Origin: a phage
Strand: one strand, 5' to 3'
Length of the DNA: 42,659 nucleotides
Sequence record: PZ386954.1
The notes beneath the pieces were generated by a model. That model saw only the letters and a list, made by a program, of their open reading frames with translations. It had not been told where the DNA came from and did not search any database. Below are positions 4,606 to 26,258 of this stretch, one piece after another. Numbering within the stretch: position 1 is the stretch's first letter; each line of letters begins with the position of its first letter. Made by a program: the position numbers and the translations under genes.

Positions 4606-4634
4606 CGATACTATATCACTATAGACACTTTCAT
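4606..4634 (+). promoter_or_regulatory. conserved element CGATACTATATCACTATAGACACTTTCAT; contains TCACTATAG identical to T7 promoter -8..+1; inverted near-identical copy at 25549-25580
   Basis: TCACTATAG at 4616-4624; about 130 bp upstream of the first sigma70 promoter, a T7 phiOL-like position. Confidence 0.45.
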
Positions 4635-4760
4635 TTACTTATTGATTTATAAGGATTTATTTACTGTATTCAATCGGTATTCTATCCAGTGTTAGGATTA
4701 TCTAATCAAACTTTAATCCTAATGATTACAGTAACTTATCACTTTTCTTGAAAATAATAC

Positions 4761-9526: not shown

Positions 9527-9811
9527 ATGGTACTGGCATCTGAAAGTATTATCGAACAGGCTGGCGCAATCCGTGAAGCTGAGCATCTGCGTGGGGTAGC
9601 CGCAACGCTCGGTCACTGTGCTGGCAACGGCGGTCTGCGTGGGCATTCAGTCGGCGGCGTATTTCCCTGCGTGATATTCTCGCGGGGCAACCCACATGAA
9701 CACCTCGACTGGTGCTTCCTCGCACCGAACGGCGACGAGTTCGACGGCTTCGTAAGTTATGAAGATGCGTATGCAGCCGCGCAGGTATGGCTGGAACAAC
9801 GAGAGGTGTGA
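9527..9811 (+). CDS. hypothetical protein (94 aa)
   Basis: ATG with AGGGGG SD; tightly packed with neighbours. Confidence 0.55.
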   Translation: MVLASESIIEQAGAIREAEHLRGVAATLGHCAGNGGLRGHSVGGVFPCVIFSRGNPHEHLDWCFLAPNGDEFDGFVSYEDAYAAAQVWLEQREV

Positions 9812-10811: not shown

Positions 10812-10830
10812 TATGAAGGTGTCTATATTG
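10812..10830 (+). promoter_or_regulatory. copy of the ATGAA(A/G)GTGTCTATA motif family, candidate phage-RNAP promoter or regulatory box
   Basis: TATGAAGGTGTCTATATTG, 18 of 20 identical to the 25549 copy; about 20 nt upstream of the 10850 gene. Confidence 0.4.
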
Positions 10831-12195: not shown

Positions 12196-12624
12196 GTGCT
12201 TGAGTGTATTGACCACGGCCAGAAGGGTAATGCTAATGGCTACGGATATACCAGCCGCTATGTAGATGGCAAGCGGGTAGTGGTTGGGCTGCACCGCGCA
12301 GCTTACTGCGATGCGCATGGCCTGCCTTACTCTGCAATCAAGGGCAAGGTGGTCATGCACCGTTGTGATAACCCACGCTGTATCAACCCTGACCATCTGG
12401 TGTTGGGTACACAGGGAGACAACATGCAGGACATGATGGGCAAACGCCGACACCACAAGGGTGAGGCAACACCGCACGCCAAGCTGACGAGTGAGCAGGT
12501 CGTGCTTATCCGTAAGCTGTACGCTGAGGGCGGCGTAACCCAACGTGAACTTGCGTTGGAGTTCGGTGTATCCCAAACGAATATCAGTGCCATCGTAAGG
12601 GGAGAAACTTTCAGTGTTGGATAA
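12196..12624 (+). CDS. HNH homing endonuclease with C-terminal helix-turn-helix
   Basis: GTG start; HRCDNPRCINPDHLVLGTQGDN HNH motif; C-terminal QRELALEFGVSQTNISAIVRGE; inserted between the zinc-finger gene and the helicase. Confidence 0.8.
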   Translation: MLECIDHGQKGNANGYGYTSRYVDGKRVVVGLHRAAYCDAHGLPYSAIKGKVVMHRCDNPRCINPDHLVLGTQGDNMQDMMGKRRHHKGEATPHAKLTSEQVVLIRKLYAEGGVTQRELALEFGVSQTNISAIVRGETFSVG

Positions 12625-13879
12625 ACTGTTGTTAACGGTGATGCGCGAGCGCGGGAAATACAACTCCCTGCGACACGCCATCCCGGAAGATACAATGAGC
12701 CAGACCACGGGCTATATGCTGCGTGCTTACGGCTCATACTTTGACGCGTTCCCGGACAGTGACTTCATTGACATTGAGACACTGGGTACGCATGTTCGTT
12801 TGAAGACAGGCAGCACGCCTGAACAGATGGCAGCCTTCGATTCGTTGTGCGCTCAGCTCAAAGAGTACAAGCCAACGAAGGAGCAGAAGGAGGGCATCCT
12901 TGACCAGCTCGTAGAGTTGGACACTGCTGGTCGTGCGAACCTGCTAATGCAACGGTACGATAATGGTGAAGAACTTGATATTATCTATGAGCTTGGCCGT
13001 CTGGCTGAGGGCGCACGCCGCAGTCGGGGTCAATCATCCGTTACCGATTACGTCGATGACGATGTTGTTGACATTATTAATCGGACTGATGATGACCAAG
13101 GCTTTAAGTTCGGTCTCATGTGCCTGCAAGATAGCGTACGCGTACTGCTTCCCGGCGACTCCGTTGCAATCGCTGCCCGACCTGACAGTGGGAAGACCAG
13201 CTTCATCGCGTTTAACCTTACGCGAATGGCGGCGACAGCAGCGAAGCTCTATCCGGGCAGACCAATCCTGTGGTTCAACAACGAAGGTCAGGGCATCAAC
13301 ATCATCCCGCGCATCTATCAGGCGGCGCTCAACTGTACGCTCCCGGAACTGAAAGAGCTGGGTGAGGACAGAGGCAAGCTGCACGCTGCGTATGCCAAAG
13401 CACTGGGTGCGCCAGCCAATGTGATTCGTGTTAAGGATATGCACGGCGCGACGCTGGCGAAAGCTGAGCAGGTTATCGAAGCGATGAACCCGTGCATCGT
13501 GGTGTGGGATATGCTTGCCAACTTCAAGCTGTCTGTGTCTGACCCGTCAAGCAACAAGGCGAGTCAGGTCGAGCAGCTATGGCAGGAGGTACGTGAGCTG
13601 GCAGTGCGCCACAACTTTGTGTCGCTGGCTACGGTTCAGGTATCTGCTGATGGTGCCGATGATATGTTCCCGGCACTGGATGCGCTCAAGGATTCCAAGA
13701 CTGGTATCCAAGGGGCGACTGATGTTATCGTGATGCTCGGCAGTGTGGATGACCCATCACTGGCGGCGCGGCGCGGTGTCAGTACGCCGAAGAACAAACG
13801 CCAGATTGCTGGGCGTCCAAGCAACGTGCGGTCGCAGGTACACTTCTTTGCTGACCGCTGCCAATACGAGGATATGTAA
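12614..13879 (+). CDS. replicative DNA helicase (DnaB/T7 gp4 helicase-like)
   Basis: Walker A IAARPDSGKTSF and Walker B-like CIVVWDML; start uncertain (GTG 12614 or ATG 12641). Confidence 0.7.
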   Translation: MLDKLLLTVMRERGKYNSLRHAIPEDTMSQTTGYMLRAYGSYFDAFPDSDFIDIETLGTHVRLKTGSTPEQMAAFDSLCAQLKEYKPTKEQKEGILDQLVELDTAGRANLLMQRYDNGEELDIIYELGRLAEGARRSRGQSSVTDYVDDDVVDIINRTDDDQGFKFGLMCLQDSVRVLLPGDSVAIAARPDSGKTSFIAFNLTRMAATAAKLYPGRPILWFNNEGQGINIIPRIYQAALNCTLPELKELGEDRGKLHAAYAKALGAPANVIRVKDMHGATLAKAEQVIEAMNPCIVVWDMLANFKLSVSDPSSNKASQVEQLWQEVRELAVRHNFVSLATVQVSADGADDMFPALDALKDSKTGIQGATDVIVMLGSVDDPSLAARRGVSTPKNKRQIAGRPSNVRSQVHFFADRCQYEDM

Positions 13880-14241
13880 TGAGCCATTTGAAGGTAGGTG
13901 ACCGAGTAGTAAACATTGATGCACGCAGTGTGCATTACGGTGCGAAGGGTACTGTGGTTGACATCAACGACAAGTACGTGAGCATTGACCGCGACGATGG
14001 TGCGCGTGGTTCTGGTATCAGTGGCTCGTGGACTGCACGCCATGCGTCGTGGGCGCTGATTGGTGACGCTCCGCATGTAGCAGCCACGCCTGAACCGGAG
14101 GCGACTGCCGAGGACTGGAGCTACGCTGAGGCTGAGCGTCTGTACCAAGCAGCGTGCGATGCCATGTCAGTGTACAACCAGTACGTTGAGCGTAAGCCGA
14201 CGACCAGCTACCTGCCCGGCAGCGTGCCGAGTAAGTGGTGA
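13879..14241 (+). CDS. hypothetical protein (120 aa)
   Basis: ATG overlapping helicase stop (TAATG); N-terminal KVGDRVV...GTVVDI KOW/SH3-like feel. Confidence 0.55.
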   Translation: MSHLKVGDRVVNIDARSVHYGAKGTVVDINDKYVSIDRDDGARGSGISGSWTARHASWALIGDAPHVAATPEPEATAEDWSYAEAERLYQAACDAMSVYNQYVERKPTTSYLPGSVPSKW

Positions 14242-14361
14242 GGGGCCGCAGCTATCGCCGTTGCTCTTGCGGCGGCAGTCTGCTGGCTGAGCAGACCAAG
14301 GGCAAGGCCACTGGCAAGACGCTGGTGATTTACGAATGTGAAAAGTGTGGAGTAAAGCAGT

Positions 14362-14553
14362 ATGGAAGAACGCACGTATCGAGCGGCACCCTTAAACCAA
14401 CGTGAGCAAGCAACCATCCGGGCGCAGTACCGGAAGGGTGATGCGTTCCGTGGTGCCGAGGCGCTGGCCGAACGTTTCAATGTGCCGCCTGCTGATGTGG
14501 TGGCAGTGGTGAACTTCACTTATCGCAAGGGGAAACAGAAGCATGATAAGTAA
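14362..14553 (+). CDS. hypothetical small protein (63 aa)
   Basis: ATG with GGAG SD; stop overlaps next gene. Confidence 0.5.
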   Translation: MEERTYRAAPLNQREQATIRAQYRKGDAFRGAEALAERFNVPPADVVAVVNFTYRKGKQKHDK

Positions 14554-15226
14554 TGCAGAAGTCAAGCGCGTATGGGCAGAGGACATCTGCCGTCTGCTGC
14601 AATCACATGAGCTGAACTTTGTGGTTGCCGGGGGAGGGGCAAGGGATACAGCGCTGGGTGTTGAGCCGAAGGACTATGACATCGTGGTCTTCGGTTGGGG
14701 TGGGGATGTAAGCCGCGTGGTCGGTAGATTGGAATGGTTGGACACCAACCTCGAAGCGTATGCCAAGCAGCACAACCTGCCGTATGAGTACATGCCAAGC
14801 TACCACGACGCAGCCGAGGGCGGCGACTTCGGTTCCCGTCTGTACGGTGTGTTCAAGCTCGGCCCGGTTGACATCATCATTAGTAAATGTGGCTGCTGGT
14901 CACAGGTGCTGAGCGAGTTCGACTTCAACCTGAACCAGTTCTACTTCCCGTCCAGTATCCCGCGATACTCCGGGCAGTACAGCCGTGACCCCGGTGAGTT
15001 CATGGCGTACCCGTACGAGCCGAAGCTAACAGCCGAGGACGTGCAGTGGTATCCGGCGCTGGCCAGTCTGGTTGAAAGCTACGACGACCTGCTGACTCTC
15101 CGTGTCTGCCGACCGGATGCCAGCCTGAGTCGTGTGGCCTACATGCTGGAGAAGCACGAGACACACCGCGAGCGCATCGAAGCATACGTCAATCGTATGC
15201 CAGACCATTTGGGTGGCACAGCATAG
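14543..15226 (+). CDS. nucleotidyltransferase, class II CCA-adding enzyme / poly(A) polymerase head-domain-like
   Basis: FVVAGGGARDTALGVEPKDYDIVVFG parallels E. coli Cca [25 protein letters not shown] (GG.(V/A)RD...D.D); 227 aa, head domain only. Confidence 0.7.
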   Translation: MISNAEVKRVWAEDICRLLQSHELNFVVAGGGARDTALGVEPKDYDIVVFGWGGDVSRVVGRLEWLDTNLEAYAKQHNLPYEYMPSYHDAAEGGDFGSRLYGVFKLGPVDIIISKCGCWSQVLSEFDFNLNQFYFPSSIPRYSGQYSRDPGEFMAYPYEPKLTAEDVQWYPALASLVESYDDLLTLRVCRPDASLSRVAYMLEKHETHRERIEAYVNRMPDHLGGTA

Positions 15227-15236
15227 CGGGGGATGA

Positions 15237-17702
15237 ATGGCAATAAGAGCACAGGTAATCGACGTTGAGACTGAGAACCATGAGTGGTATGGGGAGCTGG
15301 CATCGCCGCGCTGCCCGGATAACTATGTGGTTATGCAGGGCCAGCGTGACTGTGTGCTGACCAAGGATGGCTGGGTATTCTACGAGCGCGAGGAGTATCG
15401 GTACAGTTCTCGTGAGGACTGGTTGCAGAACAAGAGTCTGCACCTGCATCCTGACACGAACATTCTGGTAGCTCACAACGCGCCGTATGAATTGAGCTGG
15501 TGGTTCGAGCATTACGGTGACGAGTTCATTGCCTTCCTCAAACGAGGTGGCCGTGTATTCTGTACCGCGTATGCTGAGTACCTGCTGACGCATCAGCAAT
15601 CCCAGTACCCATCCTTGAACGAGACAGCACCGAAGTATGGTGGTACTCACAAGGTGGATGCAGTCAAGGCAATGTGGGAGTCAGGCTACCTGACCAGCCA
15701 GATTGACCCTGAGCTGCTGAGCGAGTATCTGTCCGGGCCGTCCGGGGATATTGAGAACACGACCAAGCTGTTCGTTGGTCAGTGGGCTGAACTGACAAAG
15801 CAGGGCATGTTGCCGATGGCACTGACCCGCTTCGAAGGTATGCTCATGTGGGCGTACATGATGCACGCTGGTCTGCATGTTGACCGCGAGGTAGCCGAGC
15901 GCAACCGTCGCGAGTTACAGGATGCAATCAGTGGGCTGACTGAAACGCTGCTGAGTTACCTGCCAGCCGACATGCCGAAGGAAGCGCGTGAGCAATTCAA
16001 GTTCACGTCAGCTTATCACATGAGCGCCTTCGTGTTCGGTGGTGTGATGAAGTACAAGGCGCGAGTCGAGCGCCGGGATGCCGAGGGCAATCTCATTTAC
16101 GTGAAGGTGGATGCACCACTGTTCAAGCGAGGCAAGGACAAGTGGCTCAAGCATACCAGCGAGTGTGAGTGGGATGACGAGACTGGGTTGTGGTATGACC
16201 CGGTTGAGAAGGTACACCAGACTATCTACACCAGCGGCAAGCACAAGGGCGAGCCGAAGTTTGAGAAGCTGGCTACCGACGAGGTGGATACCAAGTGGGG
16301 TGAGGTGCTGTTCCGTATGCCGGGGCTTCTGCGTGTGCAGGATAAACGAGCGAAGGAGATTGCAGACAACCTCGAATGGGAAGACCCGAAGAAGCCGGGC
16401 GAGTATCTCCGGCGCACAGGTGATTGGGTAGGTAAGCGTAGGCTGGCCGATGGTTCCCCGGTATTCAGTACGGCGGGTGAGGTGCTGGACATTCTGGCAG
16501 CTCGTAAGATTCCCGGCGTGGTGGAGATTGCTGACCGGGCCAAGGCACAGAAAGACCTCGGCACCTACTACCTCAGCGAGACGTTCGATGAAGAAGGTAA
16601 CGTGACTGGCCAGTCGGGGATGATGCAGTTCATCCAGCCGGACAGTATCGTACACCACACCATCAACATGACCGCGACCGAGACGACGCGCTTATCTTCG
16701 GCGCGACCGAACAGCCAGAACTTGCCACGTAAAGGTACGAGTAAGGTTAAGCAGATGTTCACCTCCCGCTTTGGTGAAGGTGGCCGCATCGTTGAAGCTG
16801 ACTACTCGGCACTGGAAGTGGTGGGGCTGGCCGGGTTCAGTAAGGATAAGAACCTGATTCGTGCATTGCTCGATGGTATCGATATGCACTGTATGCGATT
16901 GTCAGCTCAGCTCAACGAGCCGTACGAGGACGTGCTTAAGAAGTGCAAGGATGAATCCCATCCTGACCATGCACGGTACAGTCAGATGCGTACTGACATT
17001 AAGCCGAAGGCGTTCTCATACCAGTACGGTGCAACAGCGCGAGGTATTGCTTACTCGACTGGTTGCTCAGAGGAAGAAGCGCAGGCGTTCATCGACAACG
17101 AGAAGGGTCTGTTCCCGGAAGTTGAAGAATGGTTCGACGCGGTTATCTTCCCTGCCGTAGAGAAAAGTGGACAGAGCAATGTATTCAAGGAGCAGGACGA
17201 GAACGGGCGGTGGCAGGTGTATCGCCGTGGTCACTTCCGTTCGCCGGGTGGAACTTGTTATTCATTCCGTCAGTACGAGAAATGGAACAAGGCGGCGCGT
17301 GCTCACCTGATGGAATACAAACCAACTCAGATGCGTAACTATCCTATTCAGGGTGAGACCGCATTTTGGGTACAGGGAATCGGTGGCCTGCTGTTCCGCT
17401 GGCTGCTATCGAACGACTTCTTTGGTGGGCGTGTGGTTCCCATCAACCAAGTGCATGACGCATTCTATTTCGACATTGCACCTGACTGCCCTCACGAGTT
17501 CTTCGTTGGACTCAAGGCAATCATGGAGAGCATCCCGGAATACTATAACCACGTATGGCCAGAGTATAACCTGACAGTGCCGTTCCCGGCAGAGGTGGAA
17601 GCAGGGCCAAGCATGTACGAGAAGCACCACGTAGAGACGACAGCCGATGAAGTGCTGGAGTTTAAGAGACAATTCCTGTTGAGTAAGGGTATCGCATTAT
17701 GA
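15237..17702 (+). CDS. DNA polymerase, family A (T7 gp5-like)
   Basis: 821 aa; DYSALEVVGLA (motif A), KPKAFSYQYGATARGI (motif B), INQVHDAFYFD (motif C), RPNSQNLPRK. Confidence 0.9.
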   Translation: MAIRAQVIDVETENHEWYGELASPRCPDNYVVMQGQRDCVLTKDGWVFYEREEYRYSSREDWLQNKSLHLHPDTNILVAHNAPYELSWWFEHYGDEFIAFLKRGGRVFCTAYAEYLLTHQQSQYPSLNETAPKYGGTHKVDAVKAMWESGYLTSQIDPELLSEYLSGPSGDIENTTKLFVGQWAELTKQGMLPMALTRFEGMLMWAYMMHAGLHVDREVAERNRRELQDAISGLTETLLSYLPADMPKEAREQFKFTSAYHMSAFVFGGVMKYKARVERRDAEGNLIYVKVDAPLFKRGKDKWLKHTSECEWDDETGLWYDPVEKVHQTIYTSGKHKGEPKFEKLATDEVDTKWGEVLFRMPGLLRVQDKRAKEIADNLEWEDPKKPGEYLRRTGDWVGKRRLADGSPVFSTAGEVLDILAARKIPGVVEIADRAKAQKDLGTYYLSETFDEEGNVTGQSGMMQFIQPDSIVHHTINMTATETTRLSSARPNSQNLPRKGTSKVKQMFTSRFGEGGRIVEADYSALEVVGLAGFSKDKNLIRALLDGIDMHCMRLSAQLNEPYEDVLKKCKDESHPDHARYSQMRTDIKPKAFSYQYGATARGIAYSTGCSEEEAQAFIDNEKGLFPEVEEWFDAVIFPAVEKSGQSNVFKEQDENGRWQVYRRGHFRSPGGTCYSFRQYEKWNKAARAHLMEYKPTQMRNYPIQGETAFWVQGIGGLLFRWLLSNDFFGGRVVPINQVHDAFYFDIAPDCPHEFFVGLKAIMESIPEYYNHVWPEYNLTVPFPAEVEAGPSMYEKHHVETTADEVLEFKRQFLLSKGIAL

Positions 17703-22100: not shown

Positions 22101-22671
22101 GAAGGGTAAGCAGTTTATCTTAGACCCGTCCCGTAATTGGGGTACTGGCACACTGCTGAGCGACATTGCTGAGCAGGGTATCATCCTGACGTACGACGAG
22201 CCGTATGACGTGCCGAACGATAGCCGGGACTACTACACCTGCGTGAAGGATGGTAAGACTCACCTGCTTGTGCTGGAGCCTTACGAGGTGAAGGAAGTCG
22301 AGACTGCATTCATCCCGGTTGACCCGTACGACCCGGCCTCTGATGTTGAGGTGGCCGTGGCCAAGAGTGCCGGGCCGGGCGGTATGAAGTTCGACGGCGG
22401 CAAGCCCCGCATGTCCTTGTTGTTCGATGGCTGCCCGAATGCGCTGGAGGCTGTGGCCAGCGTGCTCACCTTCGGCGCAGAGAAGTATGCAGCCCACTCG
22501 TGGCAGACTGTACCGGAAGGTGAGGAACGCTACAAGTCGGCGCTGCTCCGGCACCTGACGGCGGTGGGCAAAGGTGAGGAACTGGATAGCGAATCCAACC
22601 TACACCATCTGGCGCACGCCGCGTGCAATGCGCTGTTCATTCTGGAACTCGAATTAAGGAAACGCAAATGA
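22093..22671 (+). CDS. conserved phage protein; C-terminal domain resembles the family sometimes annotated dATP/dGTP diphosphohydrolase N-terminal-like or DUF
   Basis: KFDGGKPRMSLLF...ALEAVASVLTFGAEKY...RYKSALLRHL...HHLAHAACNALFILE; assignment from memory of the family, not searched. Confidence 0.5.
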   Translation: MSKKGKQFILDPSRNWGTGTLLSDIAEQGIILTYDEPYDVPNDSRDYYTCVKDGKTHLLVLEPYEVKEVETAFIPVDPYDPASDVEVAVAKSAGPGGMKFDGGKPRMSLLFDGCPNALEAVASVLTFGAEKYAAHSWQTVPEGEERYKSALLRHLTAVGKGEELDSESNLHHLAHAACNALFILELELRKRK

Positions 22672-22844
22672 GTGTTTTACTTTGGATTGTAGCTGTGGTA
22701 TGGTTTGCCCTGTTCTCTGTTGTCTGTCTGGCCGCGTGCGACCAGTACAACAAGACGCACGTTGACAGGTCTGGTGCAGCAGGCTTTATCCTGTGGTTAT
22801 TTCTGGCTGTCATCCCCGCTGTTCTGTTTGCCTGTCTTGCGTAG
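22668..22844 (+). CDS. small two-TM membrane protein (58 aa)
   Basis: ATG with AAGGAAA SD; two hydrophobic helices separated by DQYNKTHVDRSG. Confidence 0.5.
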   Translation: MSVLLWIVAVVWFALFSVVCLAACDQYNKTHVDRSGAAGFILWLFLAVIPAVLFACLA

Positions 22845-22852
22845 GAGGTTGT

Positions 22853-23086
22853 ATGAGTCGTTATCAAAGAGCCATTGAGGACACAGTGGTTGACCGTAAA
22901 GTGTGCGGTGCCTGCATGGGTAGCGGCACCTACCGTGGCATGTTGATTGGTGGGCAGGTAGTCCTGATGGATTGCGAAGCCTGCGGCGGTACGGGTACGA
23001 ATGACCCGGCACTGCAACATTCTGTACTGAGTGACTTGGGCCAGCGCAAACAAGCGCAGCCGGGATATGACGAACCAACGGAGTAA
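22853..23086 (+). CDS. small zinc-finger protein with two CxxCxGxG motifs (DnaJ Cys-rich-like)
   Basis: CGACMGSGT and CEACGGTGT; AGGAGG SD; immediately upstream of RNAP. Confidence 0.6.
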   Translation: MSRYQRAIEDTVVDRKVCGACMGSGTYRGMLIGGQVVLMDCEACGGTGTNDPALQHSVLSDLGQRKQAQPGYDEPTE

Positions 23087-25521
23087 TGATGGACTTACTT
23101 GCAGAGCAGATTCGACTTGAAGAAGAAGCACGAGCCAGACACCGCGAGGGCTGGCTGGATAATATCAAAGAGGCGATGGCCAGTGGCCGGGCCGGGTCGG
23201 TGCCGTTGCTCCAGCGTATGATGGTAGAGGCGTATCCTCTTGTCGAAGCTGCGATGCAAGAAACCCTGAGCGAAACGACCCGTGGATATGGTGCGCAGTA
23301 CCGGACGTACATGCGTGAGATTGGCACCAAAGCGTGTGCCTCTCTCGCACTGAGCATGGCGGTGTCCGGTGCTGCGTCGGAGCAGGCGGTACTGAGTCTG
23401 CTCAAGAGCATGGGCAAGGCACTGATGGCTGAGGTGGTGTACCTCCGGGCGAAGCAGACCGGGCCACAGCAGGCGGCGTACATGGAGCGCGTTAAGCAGG
23501 ACGTGAAGAAGTCTCGCTCGAAGTCAGCGAACCACGTTTACAATAAAGCGCGTGCGTCGGCGGCGAACGTTGGGGTGGAGATTGATGTGCTACCGCAGCG
23601 TGCGCTGATTACCATTGGCAAGTTGATGATGAAGTGCGTCGAGCCAACTGGTCTGGTGTCTACGATTCGCGTCGGCGGCAACCAGCGCCAGCGCGGTACG
23701 GCACACTTCGCACTGCATGAAGATGTGCTGGCTACGATGAATGACTGGCTGGACATGCCGCGTGCCGATGGCATGTGCTGCCCACCGCTGATTATCCCAC
23801 CGAAGCAGATTGCCCCGAATGGTCGCAGTGGTATGTGGCATTCCGATGGGCAGGCAGCGATGTACCGGGTAATGAGTCGCATGAACCACAAAGGGTATCG
23901 TGCATTGAACGTTGACCCGACCCCCGTTATAGAGCCGTGTATGATGCTCAGCAGCGTTCCGTACCGAGTTAACCCAATGGTACTGGAGTTCCTGCGAACG
24001 AACCGTACAGGCGTTATGGGGCTGCCTGTGCCACCTCGTGAGCCTACACTTCCGTTTACCATCCCCGCTGGTGTGAGCTTTGCGCAGTACATCAGCAAGT
24101 TCCCACCAGAGATGCAGCAGCAGATGGATGCCGAAGCTCATGAGTACAAGGTGAAGACTCGCTTGTATTACAATGAGTTGCGTAAGTTCACGTCGCAGAT
24201 GCTGGCGTTGAATGGTGCAGTCAAAGAGGCAGACAGGTATGCGCAGTACGATAGGATTTATCTCCCGACTTACGCCGATACGCGGGGCCGAATTTATTAT
24301 TCTTCGACCCTTAACCCTCAGTCTATCGACGCGGTGCGAGCGCTGCTTGAGCTTGCGGAACCAGTGGCTCTCGGAAGCGAGGGGCTATTCTGGCTCAAGG
24401 TTCATGTTGCGAATTGCTTCGGCTACGACGCAACAGACTTCGACGACCGGGCGGCGTGGACGGACAAAACACTCCCCCGACTACGTGAGGCGTGCCGTCT
24501 TCCAGAGGCATTTGATTCGTTCTGGTCTGAGGCCGATAGCCCTATCTCAGCGTGGGCTGCATCTGTTGAACTCATTCGAGCTATCGACAGCGGAAGTCCT
24601 GAGACTTATCCCTGCCGAGTGGTTACGCAGTGGGATGCTACATGTTCAGGTCTCCAACACCTCAGCGCAATGTTACGCGATGAAGTTGGGGGTGCTGCTG
24701 TCAATCTTATCAATAGCGTGGGGCGAAAGGCAGACATATATCTCAAGACGGCAGCAGCGGCGATGCAGGCTCTTGAAGATAGTGAAGCGCAGTCACCGAC
24801 GCAGATGGGTACGTGGCTTGTTTCAATCGGCATTGTCCGGGCTATGGCCAAGAAGCCAGTGATGACCTACGTGTACGGGGCAACCCGTCACGGTATGGTG
24901 GACTACTACTGCCTGTACCTGCGAGAGAACCGGGTCAAGCTGCCGGACGGCAAGAGCCTACTGGAGTGTGCGCAGTTCATCGCAGAGTTCATGTGGAATG
25001 CAATCCCGCGTGTCGTGCCGAAAGCGGCAGAGCTGATGGCGTGGTTGCAGGCTATCGCGGTGGAGGCGGCGGCTAACGGCGAGTACGTGGAAATCATTGC
25101 GCCGTCAGGGTTGCGGGTGGTTAACCTGTACCAAGCCAGCAAGGAGACGATGCTCAACAACATCAACCTCATGGGTATCCACAGCATTAAGCTGCGCGAG
25201 TATCTGGACAAGCCGGACGGCAGGAAGTGCGCTGCTGCGATTGCTCCTAATTTCGTACACGCTATGGATGCCAGCCACATGATGAAGGTGTTGTGGGAGA
25301 TGTGGAATAACGGGGTGTTCATGGTGTCCATCCATGACTCGTTCGGTGTTGCTGCTGCTCATGCCGGGTTACTTCACAAGGTCATTCGTGAAAAGTTCGT
25401 GCAGATGTATGAGCAACATGACCCAATTCAACAACTTGCTGTGCGATACAATGCTGTTGCACCTGAACGGGGCAATCTGGACATCCAGCTTGTGAAACAA
25501 TCAAGCAAGTTTTTCTGCTGA
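23086..25521 (+). CDS. single-subunit DNA-dependent RNA polymerase (T7 gp1-like)
   Basis: 811 aa; catalytic VSIHDSFGV motif and overall T7-class RNAP layout; located directly before the structural genes as in phiKMV-like phages. Confidence 0.9.
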   Translation: MMDLLAEQIRLEEEARARHREGWLDNIKEAMASGRAGSVPLLQRMMVEAYPLVEAAMQETLSETTRGYGAQYRTYMREIGTKACASLALSMAVSGAASEQAVLSLLKSMGKALMAEVVYLRAKQTGPQQAAYMERVKQDVKKSRSKSANHVYNKARASAANVGVEIDVLPQRALITIGKLMMKCVEPTGLVSTIRVGGNQRQRGTAHFALHEDVLATMNDWLDMPRADGMCCPPLIIPPKQIAPNGRSGMWHSDGQAAMYRVMSRMNHKGYRALNVDPTPVIEPCMMLSSVPYRVNPMVLEFLRTNRTGVMGLPVPPREPTLPFTIPAGVSFAQYISKFPPEMQQQMDAEAHEYKVKTRLYYNELRKFTSQMLALNGAVKEADRYAQYDRIYLPTYADTRGRIYYSSTLNPQSIDAVRALLELAEPVALGSEGLFWLKVHVANCFGYDATDFDDRAAWTDKTLPRLREACRLPEAFDSFWSEADSPISAWAASVELIRAIDSGSPETYPCRVVTQWDATCSGLQHLSAMLRDEVGGAAVNLINSVGRKADIYLKTAAAAMQALEDSEAQSPTQMGTWLVSIGIVRAMAKKPVMTYVYGATRHGMVDYYCLYLRENRVKLPDGKSLLECAQFIAEFMWNAIPRVVPKAAELMAWLQAIAVEAAANGEYVEIIAPSGLRVVNLYQASKETMLNNINLMGIHSIKLREYLDKPDGRKCAAAIAPNFVHAMDASHMMKVLWEMWNNGVFMVSIHDSFGVAAAHAGLLHKVIREKFVQMYEQHDPIQQLAVRYNAVAPERGNLDIQLVKQSSKFFC

Positions 25522-25525
25522 TAAA

Positions 25526-25577
25526 TAGTGATATGTATCATTGACTTATATGAAAGTGTCTATAGTGATATGTATCA
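25526..25577 (+). repeat. 15-bp direct repeat TAGTGATATGTATCA, two copies (25526-25540 and 25563-25577)
   Basis: read directly in the RNAP-to-late-gene intergenic region. Confidence 0.8.
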
Positions 25578-25824: not shown

Positions 25825-25838
25825 GGAGAGTTGTCGGT

Positions 25839-26258
25839 ATGAAAGTGTCTACTATGGGAAATACATCACACACGACAATGCCACTCGACATTCGCCGTGC
25901 TGTGGCCGAGGGCATTCAAGCCGAGCGGCCATGGTCTGACTTATCTCCCGATGTGATTGTTGACAGCATGTACGAGGCCACCGCCTCCGGTTGTGTTGAC
26001 GTTTACATCACTGATGATGACAACAGCCTTATGGCCGTTGCGCACATCGGCAGGTTATTCGATATTCATGTGGGCGAGATGGTGGTCGTTATGGCCTCAT
26101 ACGTCTGGCCCCCGTACAGAAACCGTGGAGTGATGCGTGCCATCCTCCGTGTACTCAAAGACGTGGCCCGTTCAGAGGGTGTGCGTTGGTGCGGTTACTC
26201 CCATATGGTGCGGCCTTACGTTCAGGAGTACCGCTTCATTGATTTGGAGAAACCGTAA
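25839..26258 (+). CDS. hypothetical protein (139 aa), possible minimal GNAT-like acetyltransferase fold
   Basis: YVWPPYRNRGVMRAILRVLKDVARSEGV resembles the GNAT acetyl-CoA-binding R-x-x-G-x-(G/A) region; weak call. Confidence 0.4.
   Translation: MKVSTMGNTSHTTMPLDIRRAVAEGIQAERPWSDLSPDVIVDSMYEATASGCVDVYITDDDNSLMAVAHIGRLFDIHVGEMVVVMASYVWPPYRNRGVMRAILRVLKDVARSEGVRWCGYSHMVRPYVQEYRFIDLEKP

Follow-up and report, generated by a model that had tools for sequence, protein, structure and literature searches.

A small predicted zinc-ribbon gene conserved in Bonnellvirus phages and mostly skipped by annotation, and an already catalogued zinc-finger gene ahead of the phage RNA polymerase gene

The window, that is the whole analysed stretch of 42,659 nucleotides, is a complete Bonnellvirus genome (about 42.7 kb; Autographiviridae) with a phiKMV-like layout, which across positions 13600-15300 is 99% identical to Escherichia phage mellemsur. 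In the DNA replication gene block a small ORF on the plus strand (14235-14405) is located between a hypothetical gene of 120 amino acids (13879-14241, plus strand), the product of which has an SH3-like N-terminal domain scoring under the Pfam cutoff, and a gene of 63 amino acids (14362-14553, plus strand), which matches PHROG 31596, a family of unknown function, at E 9.6e-38 and shows a pN/pS of 0.18. The small ORF encodes 56 amino acids from GTG 14235 or 55 amino acids from GTG 14238 and ends with TGA 14403-14405; its translation from GTG 14238 is exactly the peptide quoted in an earlier note on this DNA. As described there, the ORF overlaps its neighbours on both sides. Upstream, the TGA of the 120-amino acid gene (14239-14241) is part of the sequence GTGGTGA (14235-14241, plus strand), in which the two candidate GTG starts lie across this stop, and downstream 44 nt (14362-14405, plus strand) are shared, in a second frame, with the first 15 codons of the 63-amino acid gene, the ATG of which, at 14362, and the GGAG Shine-Dalgarno sequence of which (dG -5.9) both lie within the small ORF. 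The unique, non-overlapped part of the gene comprises 14240-14361 on the same strand. The encoded 56-amino acid protein is small (6.1 kDa) and strongly basic (pI 9.8, 11 lysine and arginine versus three aspartate and glutamate residues), with Cys10, Cys12, Cys35 and Cys38 arranged as CxC and CxxC.

An ORF of 55 to 56 codons is by itself not beyond chance, as in the six frames of the window 219 ORFs reach 60 amino acids or more, for about 50 genes. The comparative data come from the window and 16 relatives with the ORF, which together provide 13 distinct sequences. In all 13 the ORF is open, ungapped and of equal length, while the two other plus-strand frames over it are closed in all 13. The pN/pS in its own frame is 0.21-0.22, against 1.1-1.7 in those alternative frames which are open in any sequence (1.1-1.6 for the other two on the plus strand), such that each of the remaining five frames is either closed or has a pN/pS of at least 1. 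Variable columns are distributed over the codon positions as 5/7/18, a third-position excess (at least 18 of 30 variable columns) with a binomial P of 0.0025. Open frame, third-position excess and pN/pS therefore take the small ORF beyond chance. An antisense gene at 14208-14519 was considered and ruled out, the antisense ORF being broken by stops in six relatives. The evidence for a product is comparative sequence; the Bonnellvirus papers found make no mention of the ORF.

The same data bear on the possibility that the 120-nt stretch between the neighbouring genes is a non-coding spacer or a regulatory element such as a promoter, a terminator or an RNA structure, with an accidental ORF. That the stretch is a gap in most annotations, that a Shine-Dalgarno sequence is absent and that synonymous divergence is below that of the neighbouring gene (pS 0.22 versus 0.43, about half) would fit such an element, and the low pS may indicate an extra nucleotide-level constraint on the small ORF. 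However, purifying selection is specific to one frame and goes along with the surplus of third-position changes, every carrier has the ORF open with the other frames closed or unconstrained, and phage LIMEzero preserves it at 44% amino acid identity. Furthermore, no sigma-70 promoter, terminator or Rfam family was found inside the ORF, where neither the promoters annotated in LIMEzero nor the window's own TATGAARGTGTCTATA motif occurs. By these comparative data a non-coding nature of the stretch is largely refuted and appears very improbable, while 14235-14405 is likely a genuine accessory gene restricted to the lineage of Bonnellvirus and Waewaevirus, which encodes a strongly basic 6-kDa mini-protein with a predicted one-zinc ribbon.

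The earlier note had placed the start at GTG 14238. Such a codon is present, but the in-frame GTG at 14235 is the likelier start, since phage Lidtsur has the sequence ATGGTAA at this junction, in which ATG takes the place of the 14235 codon and the 14238 codon is GTA, which is no start codon; the gene thus probably starts at 14235 and encodes 56 amino acids. A Shine-Dalgarno sequence was not found before either start (duplex dG -3.2/-3.0 versus a random mean of -3.0), whereas the neighbouring genes show duplex values of -5.1 to -10.9. Lack of a Shine-Dalgarno sequence together with the overlap of GTGGTGA with the upstream stop suggests translational coupling of the small ORF to the 120-amino acid gene, and LIMEzero has an equal GTGA overlap of start and upstream stop. 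Ribosomes which terminate on the 120-amino acid gene would reinitiate on the small ORF at low efficiency, with GTGGTGA as the presumed termination-reinitiation site, on a transcript probably shared with the primase, helicase and polymerase genes. Weak expression is predicted from the GTG start devoid of a Shine-Dalgarno sequence.

The architecture of the junction, with the small ORF in the -1 frame relative to the 120-amino acid gene and beginning exactly at the stop of that gene, could alternatively be taken to indicate programmed frameshifting at GTGGTGA, by which the zinc ribbon would become a C-terminal extension of the 120-amino acid protein. In the window, however, TAA 14232-14234 closes the frame of the small ORF just before 14235, so that only TGG-TGA is open to slippage, and an X_XXY_YYZ heptamer is absent from the junction. 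As Lidtsur possesses a proper ATG at this place and LIMEzero retains the overlap of start and stop despite a different upstream sequence, frameshifting is scarcely credible.

Coupling also raises the possibility that only the act of translating the small ORF matters, in that it delivers ribosomes to the 63-amino acid gene or tunes its initiation, with a functionless peptide as by-product. The location of the Shine-Dalgarno sequence and the ATG of the 63-amino acid gene within the small ORF, the presumed coupling of the ORF's own start to the 120-amino acid gene and the viability of phage LF82-23, which has a plain AGGAG spacer in place of the cassette, are in line with this proposal. On the other hand, a pure coupling device would fix length and frame, but not residues, while purifying selection acts on the amino acids of the small protein (pN/pS 0.21), in which the four cysteines are invariant and basic residues are conserved, which makes a role of translation without a functional peptide quite improbable. 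Within the 44-nt overlap one frame has a pN/pS of 0.92 and the other of 0.78, in agreement with what dual coding should produce. The C-terminal tail of the small protein, which is encoded by the overlap, is of low confidence in the AlphaFold2 (AF2) model (pLDDT 52-59), and by its look the last 14 codons may be a tolerated read-out tail rather than a part of the fold.

Conservation of the cysteines among relatives, the test set by the earlier note, was observed for Bonnellvirus, in the copies of which all four cysteines are invariant, while LIMEzero differs. The LIMEzero homologue, an unannotated ORF at the matching position with 44% identity, has a first knuckle of the form CxxC and a second in which the fourth cysteine is replaced by aspartate (C..D); used as the query in a 2.3-Gb search it retrieved the ORFs of Bonnellvirus with E values from 5e-6 to 4e-4. 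Homologues outside Bonnellvirus and Waewaevirus were not found. When IMG/VR, JGI metagenomes and GTDB genomes were scanned, matches were confined to the same phage lineage or absent. A word-indexed search of 5.8 billion proteins recovered the orthologues of Lidtsur and Kc261 and nothing else, and from 1.84 billion representatives an exhaustive HMM search returned, besides the family itself, just two repeat proteins as spurious matches.

The description of the ORF as unannotated is accurate for mellemsur, aldrigsur, J8-65 and RZ4, in which, as in other close relatives, it is left as a gap, but fails for the Lidtsur RefSeq record (YP_009821622.1; UniProt A0A4D6DZ23), Kc261 (QQM15412.1) and ROV85 (WXX18593.1), where it is annotated as hypothetical. 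Two of these records, Lidtsur RefSeq and Kc261, list the zinc-ribbon ORF and omit the overlapping, equally real 63-amino acid gene, because the 44-nt overlap is disfavoured by gene callers, as is a GTG start which lacks a Shine-Dalgarno sequence. Among the relatives, LF82-23 lacks the small ORF: the segment corresponding to 14240-14361 of the window is replaced by about 13 nt, with the junction TGGTAA-AGGAGAACACG-ATG. In a flanking-gene tree (helicase segment in frame) LF82-23 is nested within the clade of carriers, and its lack of the ORF is, judged from this placement, a secondary loss; two more distant IMG/VR relatives are also without the ORF. Since a viable isolate has lost it secondarily, the small gene is dispensable and not essential.

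The AF2 model of the 56-amino acid protein displays four beta-strands with both cysteine pairs in hairpin turns (pLDDT 67), a generic zinc-ribbon topology in the model, with zinc binding predicted from the motifs; CxC, the first knuckle, is an atypical one. Searches of Pfam, PHROG, NCBIfam and PADLOC gave no match above cutoff. The best PHROG match was phrog_3221 (function unknown, E 0.028), and RNHCP (PF12647; 18.5 bits versus a gathering threshold of 24), Ribosomal_L44 (PF00935; 15.2 versus 25 bits) and DUF1922 (PF09082; 13 versus 30 bits) all scored below their thresholds. A PDB profile search yielded nothing significant, the best matches being unrelated proteins at E 0.84-9.3, and Foldseek against BFVD recovered the Lidtsur orthologue only, with all other matches at E >0.1. 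A stand-alone primase zinc-binding domain was rejected as an identity of the protein (hhalign probability 0.65%); the 236-amino acid primase of the phage bears its own HxC...CxCxxC site. An internal paralogue in the genome was likewise dismissed, the best match (E 0.043) being the cysteine-driven similarity to the zinc site of a 77-amino acid gene product discussed below.

What the small protein may do has to be derived from its charge and fold class. Conserved basic residues are located ahead of the first cysteine pair (RR), in a lysine-rich loop and behind the second pair (QYGR). Since a conserved basic surface is combined with a zinc ribbon, nucleic acid binding is the most likely single activity, an assignment which nevertheless remains tentative with charge and fold class as its basis; the protein would then bind nucleic acid in replication or in middle-gene expression. 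The main alternative, possible but doubtful, is binding and inhibition of a host protein, whereby the gene product would serve as a host-takeover or anti-defence factor. Its target would be, for example, a nuclease, a defence sensor or the host RNA polymerase, and it would be of use in some hosts only. Patchy presence among the phages and dispensability are typical for host-specific accessory genes, LF82-23, grown on E. coli LF82, is without the gene, and several weak viral fold matches that fall short of significance bear the label 'restriction alleviation protein' (Lar-type zinc ribbons). In T7-like phages the products of small accessory genes scattered through the replication genes frequently bind host proteins, with T7 gp5.5, gp5.7 and gp5.9 as examples, which also fits inhibition of a host target. 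Conversely, the protein resembles no known inhibitor in Pfam, PHROG, NCBIfam, PADLOC or the PDB, the fold matches besides the Lidtsur orthologue all lie at E >0.1, and the candidate for host RNA polymerase shut-off in this phage group is a Rac-like GNAT protein encoded after the RNA polymerase gene. A more elaborate version, in which the 56-amino acid protein acts as a lineage-specific factor on a host nucleic-acid enzyme or defence sensor, was gained once in the common ancestor of Bonnellvirus and Waewaevirus, acquired its C-terminal tail by overprinting and was shed when not needed, as in LF82-23, is rather unlikely. If true, it would be a compact case in which a new accessory gene has been fitted in between two that are older.

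The earlier note suggested for small zinc-binding proteins of T7-like phages, and hence for both proteins considered here, an action on host RNA polymerase or transcription, an idea which the host-target alternative above takes up in a broader form. We know of no established basis for the premise that such proteins often target the host RNA polymerase; the textbook inhibitors of the host enzyme, T7 Gp2 and Gp5.7, are not zinc proteins. The small protein is without a homologue of known function at the sequence or fold level, similarity to characterised phage inhibitors of host RNA polymerase or transcription factors was not found in Pfam, PHROG or NCBIfam, and no result links either the small or the 77-amino acid protein to the host RNA polymerase, so that this part of the note was not borne out. 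In the phiKMV group the GNAT protein Rac has been named as the factor which inactivates the host RNA polymerase, with LIMEzero ORF36 listed as a Rac homologue (PMC7552054). By position and annotation the counterpart of ORF36 in the window is the GNAT gene at 25839-26258.

The 77-amino acid gene (22853-23086, plus strand) is preceded by an AGGAGG Shine-Dalgarno sequence and starts with ATG 22853; its stop TAA at 23084-23086 overlaps the ATG, at 23086, of the phage single-subunit RNA polymerase gene (23086-25521, plus strand) in TAATG. The presence of two DnaJ-type CxxCxGxG motifs in a gene directly before the RNA polymerase gene, as reported in the earlier note, was confirmed. The motifs read CGACMGSG and CEACGGTG and are predicted to form a single DnaJ-type zinc site, and in relatives the gene is always found directly upstream of the phage RNA polymerase gene. 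The AF2 model of the protein (pLDDT 53) is too poor for a fold search. The protein belongs to a catalogued family, as its residues 1-63 match PHROG 6060 'anti-termination protein Q-like' over profile positions 1-61 of 61 (E 3.6e-15), and the same name is used in RefSeq for J8-65 gp27, LIMEzero ORF32 and the Lidtsur homologue. No paper searched contains the phrase 'anti-termination protein Q-like', and neither of the two small proteins is discussed in the Bonnellvirus and LIMEzero papers.

If the name is taken literally, the 77-amino acid protein would be a Q-type transcription antiterminator. Besides the PHROG 6060 match, its residues 13-51 align by hhalign to residues 113-154 of lambda Q with a probability of 83% (E 8.9e-6), and the aligned segment of Q touches DNA and the zinc-binding domain of the RNA polymerase beta' subunit (PMC9388147). 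Lambda Q is composed of a four-helix body, a helix-turn-helix and a zinc-ribbon arm, the latter (residues 114-152) providing the contacts to DNA and to the beta' zinc-binding domain (PMC9388147). However, just the 39-residue zinc arm is aligned, with cysteine and glycine motifs dominating, while the four-helix bundle with its helix-turn-helix and the N- and C-terminal segments which contact the beta-flap are absent from the 77 amino acids. Pfam Q families are not matched at E <=1 in any of the seven members of the family, and the late genes lie downstream of the phage's own RNA polymerase gene and of a phage-type promoter motif. A Q-type antiterminator thus appears unlikely, and the alignment to the lambda Q arm is the sole transcription-related lead. 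The 'Q-like antiterminator' label reflects a 39-residue zinc motif only and does not constitute a functional assignment.

The small gene is real, conserved and mostly skipped by annotations, while the 77-amino acid gene is already catalogued. The value of the finding lies mainly in annotation, as a conserved small gene under selection goes unannotated in about three quarters of the genomes deposited for the genus. The small accessory genes of phages, a source of useful host-interaction factors, gain a further orphan mini-protein, and with LF82-23 a natural knock-out is at hand which eases testing. The current understanding of T7-like and phiKMV-like phages is unchanged by the small gene and the 77-amino acid gene.

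In comparison with known systems, the 77-amino acid protein resembles the arm of lambda Q in possessing two CxxCxGxG-type motifs which flank a beta-hairpin, but lambda Q has 207 amino acids with a four-helix body and a helix-turn-helix, both missing from the 77-amino acid protein, and by its sequence membership in the lambda Q family is not indicated. The DnaJ cysteine-rich domain (PF00684) differs in having four motifs, two zinc centres and an attached J domain, as opposed to the two motifs of the 77-amino acid protein, which scores 20.5 versus 32.7 bits with DnaJ_CXXCXGXG and thus below the cutoff; the best E value with this profile among the seven members of the family is 2.5e-4. Bacillus subtilis anti-TRAP (PF15777) is similarly small and also has two CxxCxGxG motifs, with the 77-amino acid protein reaching 12 versus 32 bits (PF15777) and 10.5 versus 65 bits (NF058604), respectively. 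For the small protein, the modules nearest in kind are generic Cys4 zinc ribbons such as TFIIS domain III (1tfi), Rpb9 (1qyp), Elf1 (6ir9_M) and African swine fever virus (ASFV) C122R (8q3b_I). Small stand-alone zinc-finger regulators of phages are represented by Mu Com, P2 Ogr and P4 Delta, which provide no more than a lead. Like the small protein, Com, which binds RNA, and Ogr, which binds RNA polymerase, are phage-encoded basic Cys4 proteins, of about 60-70 amino acids, but the small protein matches no Pfam family of the Com, Ogr or Delta type at E <=1. Its orthologues in Lidtsur, Kosakonia virus Kc261 and Pantoea phage ROV85 are 80-87% identical, show no functional difference from the protein of the window, being merely annotated as 'hypothetical protein', and share its position, its length and its four cysteines.

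The 42,659-nt sequence is a complete, circularly permuted Bonnellvirus genome (Autographiviridae; an Escherichia phage). Its layout is phiKMV-like, the DNA-metabolism block ending with the RNA polymerase (RNAP) gene, and all genes are on the plus strand. Over 13600-15300 it shares 99.2% identity with Escherichia phage mellemsur, and about 15 further members, with Escherichia, Enterobacter, Kosakonia, Cronobacter and Pantoea as hosts, match at 78-87%. As a six-frame translation of the genome yields 219 ORFs of 60 aa or more, the length of the small zinc-ribbon ORF (up to 14405) is alone not beyond chance, and it is the comparative evidence that is decisive for its being more than that. In an ungapped alignment of the counterparts in 14 relatives from GenBank or IMG/VR and in two metagenome contigs, the ORF is open, of equal length and with an identical stop in every carrier, while the other two plus-strand frames are closed in each. 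Variable columns in the non-overlapped part, 14241-14361, fall 5/7/18 at codon positions 1/2/3 (P = 0.0025 in a binomial test for 18 or more of 30 at third positions), and pooled pairwise pN/pS is 0.21-0.22 in the ORF frame versus 1.1-1.6 in the other plus-strand frames, with 0.18 for the accepted 63-aa gene as comparison. Of the minus-strand frames, just one has a comparably low ratio (0.32), and it is closed in every sequence; a long antisense ORF at 14208-14519 was rejected, with a ratio of 1.72 and stops in six relatives. The earlier note had pointed to conservation of the cysteines among relatives as a check, and all four are invariant throughout the genus. With its open frame in all carriers, its low pN/pS and its third-position excess, the ORF is shown, as far as sequence comparison reaches, to be a coding gene under selection.

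Translation from GTG 14238 reproduces exactly the peptide quoted in the earlier note, and the overlap with both neighbours is equally borne out: the ORF starts over the TGA 14239-14241 of the upstream 120-aa gene (GTGGTGA), ends with TGA 14403-14405 and shares its last 44 nt with the 63-aa gene beginning at ATG 14362. The start is indeed a GTG; its position, however, is most likely the further in-frame GTG at 14235, one codon before 14238, which would give 56 aa, because Escherichia phage Lidtsur has ATG at the equivalent codon and GTA, unable to initiate, at the equivalent of 14238. Neither candidate start has a Shine-Dalgarno sequence (duplex with the 16S 3' end of -3.2/-3.0 kcal/mol versus a random-position mean of -3.0), whereas neighbouring genes reach -5.1 to -10.9. 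Initiation by termination-reinitiation coupling is suggested by the way the start overlaps the preceding stop: GTGGTGA here, ATGGTAA in Lidtsur and GTGA in Pantoea phage LIMEzero (genus Waewaevirus; NC_015585). A frameshift fusion to the 120-aa protein is unlikely, since TAA 14232-14234 shuts the frame just before the start and a slippery heptamer is absent. At the other end, the TGA arises from CGT-GAG (Arg-Glu) codons of the 63-aa gene, and the synonymous T is retained in 16/16 carriers; Escherichia phage LF82-23, which lacks the ORF, has CGA at about 14765 and thus an open frame at this point. This hints, weakly, at selection on the stop position itself. The 120-aa protein (13879-14241) shows below-cutoff, weak SH3-like/Tudor-like matches at its N-terminus (Xrn1 SH3-like, E 6e-5; phage ProQ C-terminal-like, E 0.049) and matches PHROG 19629 with its C-terminal 46 residues; the zinc-ribbon gene may have a nucleic-acid binder as its neighbour.

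That the ORF is unannotated, as the earlier note had it, is true of mellemsur, aldrigsur, megetsur, HHU8, smaasur, usur, forsur, glasur, J8-65 (GenBank and RefSeq) and RZ4, but not of Lidtsur RefSeq, Kc261 and ROV85, which list it as 'hypothetical protein'; a UniProt entry and a BFVD model also exist. The 63-aa gene (14362-14553) matches PHROG 31596 (E 1e-37) and is under purifying selection, yet is omitted from Lidtsur RefSeq and Kc261, while in most other records it is the zinc-ribbon ORF that is left out, and ROV85 alone has the two together. Both genes are real, and the 44-nt overlap evidently drives gene callers to pick one of the two.

LIMEzero carries an unannotated homologue at the equivalent position (9637-9810, in the gap between ORF19 and ORF20), with 44% identity over 52 residues, and a tblastn search of 2.3 Gb with it as query hits the Bonnellvirus ORFs at E 5e-6 to 4e-4. 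Its two knuckles read CxxC and C..D, Asp taking the place of the fourth Cys (YECTEDG). The two genera share RR ahead of the first Cys, YEC in the second knuckle and QYGR behind it. Matches among 5.8 billion clustered proteins were confined to Lidtsur and Kc261, an exhaustive profile search of 1.84 billion representatives returned only the own family and two spurious repeat proteins, and no homologue was found in GTDB genomes, nor in IMG/VR and JGI metagenomes outside the same phage lineage. Three relatives lack the ORF. LF82-23 has about 13 nt instead of 14240-14361 (junction TGGTAA-AGGAGAACACG-ATG), and in two IMG/VR contigs, whose nucleotidyltransferases show 69% and 64% identity, the upstream gene runs directly into the 63-aa homologue. 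A neighbour-joining tree of three flanking proteins, with rough distances and an arbitrary root, places LF82-23 deep within the carrier clade and the two contigs outside Bonnellvirus and LIMEzero. One gain and one recent loss would be the simplest history, and with LF82-23 nested among carriers the gene is therefore a discrete, dispensable cassette. It sits in the replication block and is naturally missing from a viable phage. The practical yield is corrected annotation and an accessory gene that is easy to test, with a deletion control occurring in nature. In the same block, the primase and helicase genes are separated by an HNH homing-endonuclease gene (12196-12624; HNH_3 and helix-turn-helix), whereas in mellemsur, the closest relative, they are direct neighbours; LF82-23 has an endonuclease at the equivalent position, and the gene looks like a mobile insertion.

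The small protein (6.1 kDa, pI 9.8, K+R 11 versus D+E 3) is modelled by AlphaFold2 from a 3-sequence alignment as four beta-strands (2-9, 15-22, 29-35, 41-44) with the Cys pairs in hairpin turns, at moderate model confidence (pLDDT 67; overprinted tail 52-59), and its topology is with moderate confidence that of a zinc ribbon. Against viral models, Foldseek matched only the Lidtsur orthologue, all else having E >0.1; the best Pfam matches, RNHCP, ribosomal L44e and DUF1922, were each below cutoff; no paralogue was found elsewhere in the genome, and a relation to the phage primase zinc site was rejected. The protein would bind one zinc in the ribbon fold and would be made at a low level via coupling to the 120-aa gene, presumably from a transcript shared with the replication genes; no terminator-like site was found near the ORF. 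From charge and fold class we guess, tentatively, at nucleic-acid binding as the leading role, with binding of a host protein somewhat less probable and the remainder falling to another or no independent function. An action on host RNAP, as proposed in general for such proteins, finds no support here, as nothing links this protein to it. This protein and the 77-aa protein are, by what their sequences reveal, small, lineage-restricted, predicted zinc proteins of a kind common in phage genomes.

The 77-aa gene (22853-23086) is as it had been described: an AGGAGG Shine-Dalgarno sequence precedes ATG 22853, CGACMGSG and CEACGGTG occur in the protein, and the TAA overlaps the RNAP ATG at 23086. The RNAP gene follows it immediately in 9/9 loci checked, LIMEzero and two more distant IMG/VR contigs among them, so that its conservation reaches further than that of the zinc-ribbon gene. 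Given this fixed position and the TAATG overlap, a role tied to the phage RNAP would be a reasonable hypothesis. Two further reading frames lie ahead of it. The 206-aa product of 22051-22671 matches the dATP/dGTP diphosphohydrolase N-terminal domain (PF18909, E 5e-33) and also PHROG families named 'endolysin; inhibits RNA polymerase' (phrog_5033, E 2e-47), a name that looks misleading. A 58-aa ORF (22668-22844; MSVLLWIVAVVWFALFSVVCLAACDQ...FILWLFLAVIPAVLFACLA) that contains a pair of hydrophobic, membrane-like segments and whose ATG overlaps the stop of the 206-aa gene (ATGA) is situated between the 206-aa and 77-aa genes; it was found in IMG/VR 2751185941 (97%) and weakly in IMG/VR 2228664000 (37%), not in J8-65, LF82-23 or LIMEzero, and family searches gave no match.

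The motif TATGAARGTGTCTATA occurs four times in the genome versus 0.26 expected: exactly at 10812-10827 (+), ahead of the replication block, and 25549-25564 (+), directly past the RNAP gene, with two mismatches at 25838-25853 (+) and with one at 4620-4635 (-). At places equivalent to the exact copies, the LIMEzero annotators list 'phage specific promoters', which differ in sequence, and the copies here are candidate phage-RNAP promoters.

The 77-aa protein matches PHROG 6060, 'anti-termination protein Q-like' (E 3.6e-15), a name also used in RefSeq and the LF82-23 record. Pfam DnaJ_CXXCXGXG matches 7/7 family members below cutoff (20.5 versus 32.7 bits), the Pfam Anti-TRAP match is weaker still, and the AF2 model is poor (pLDDT 53). 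In a profile comparison (probability 83%), only lambda Q residues 113-154 align, with residues 13-51; residues 114-152 of Q form the zinc-ribbon arm, which contacts DNA and the RNAP beta' zinc-binding domain (PMC9388147). Membership of the Q family was rejected, because Q's four-helix body, helix-turn-helix and flap-contacting termini have no counterpart in the 77-aa protein, and the name over-interprets a shared zinc motif. The suggestion that the 77-aa protein acts on host RNAP or transcription thus goes as far as this motif-level lead, the Q zinc arm, and nothing further. Two genes past the RNAP gene, a 139-aa GNAT acetyltransferase (25839-26258; Pfam Acetyltransf_1, E 7e-5) would correspond, by position and the J8-65 annotation, to LIMEzero ORF36, listed as a homologue of Rac, the trigger of host RNAP alpha-subunit cleavage in phiKMV-like phages (PMC7552054, Table A1). 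In LUZ19, whose genes upstream of RNAP are not established as homologues of the 77-aa gene, a toxicity screen of fifteen genes, including those flanking the viral RNAP gene, found only Gp4, Gp5 and Gp28, the GNAT protein Rac, to be toxic (PMC7552054).
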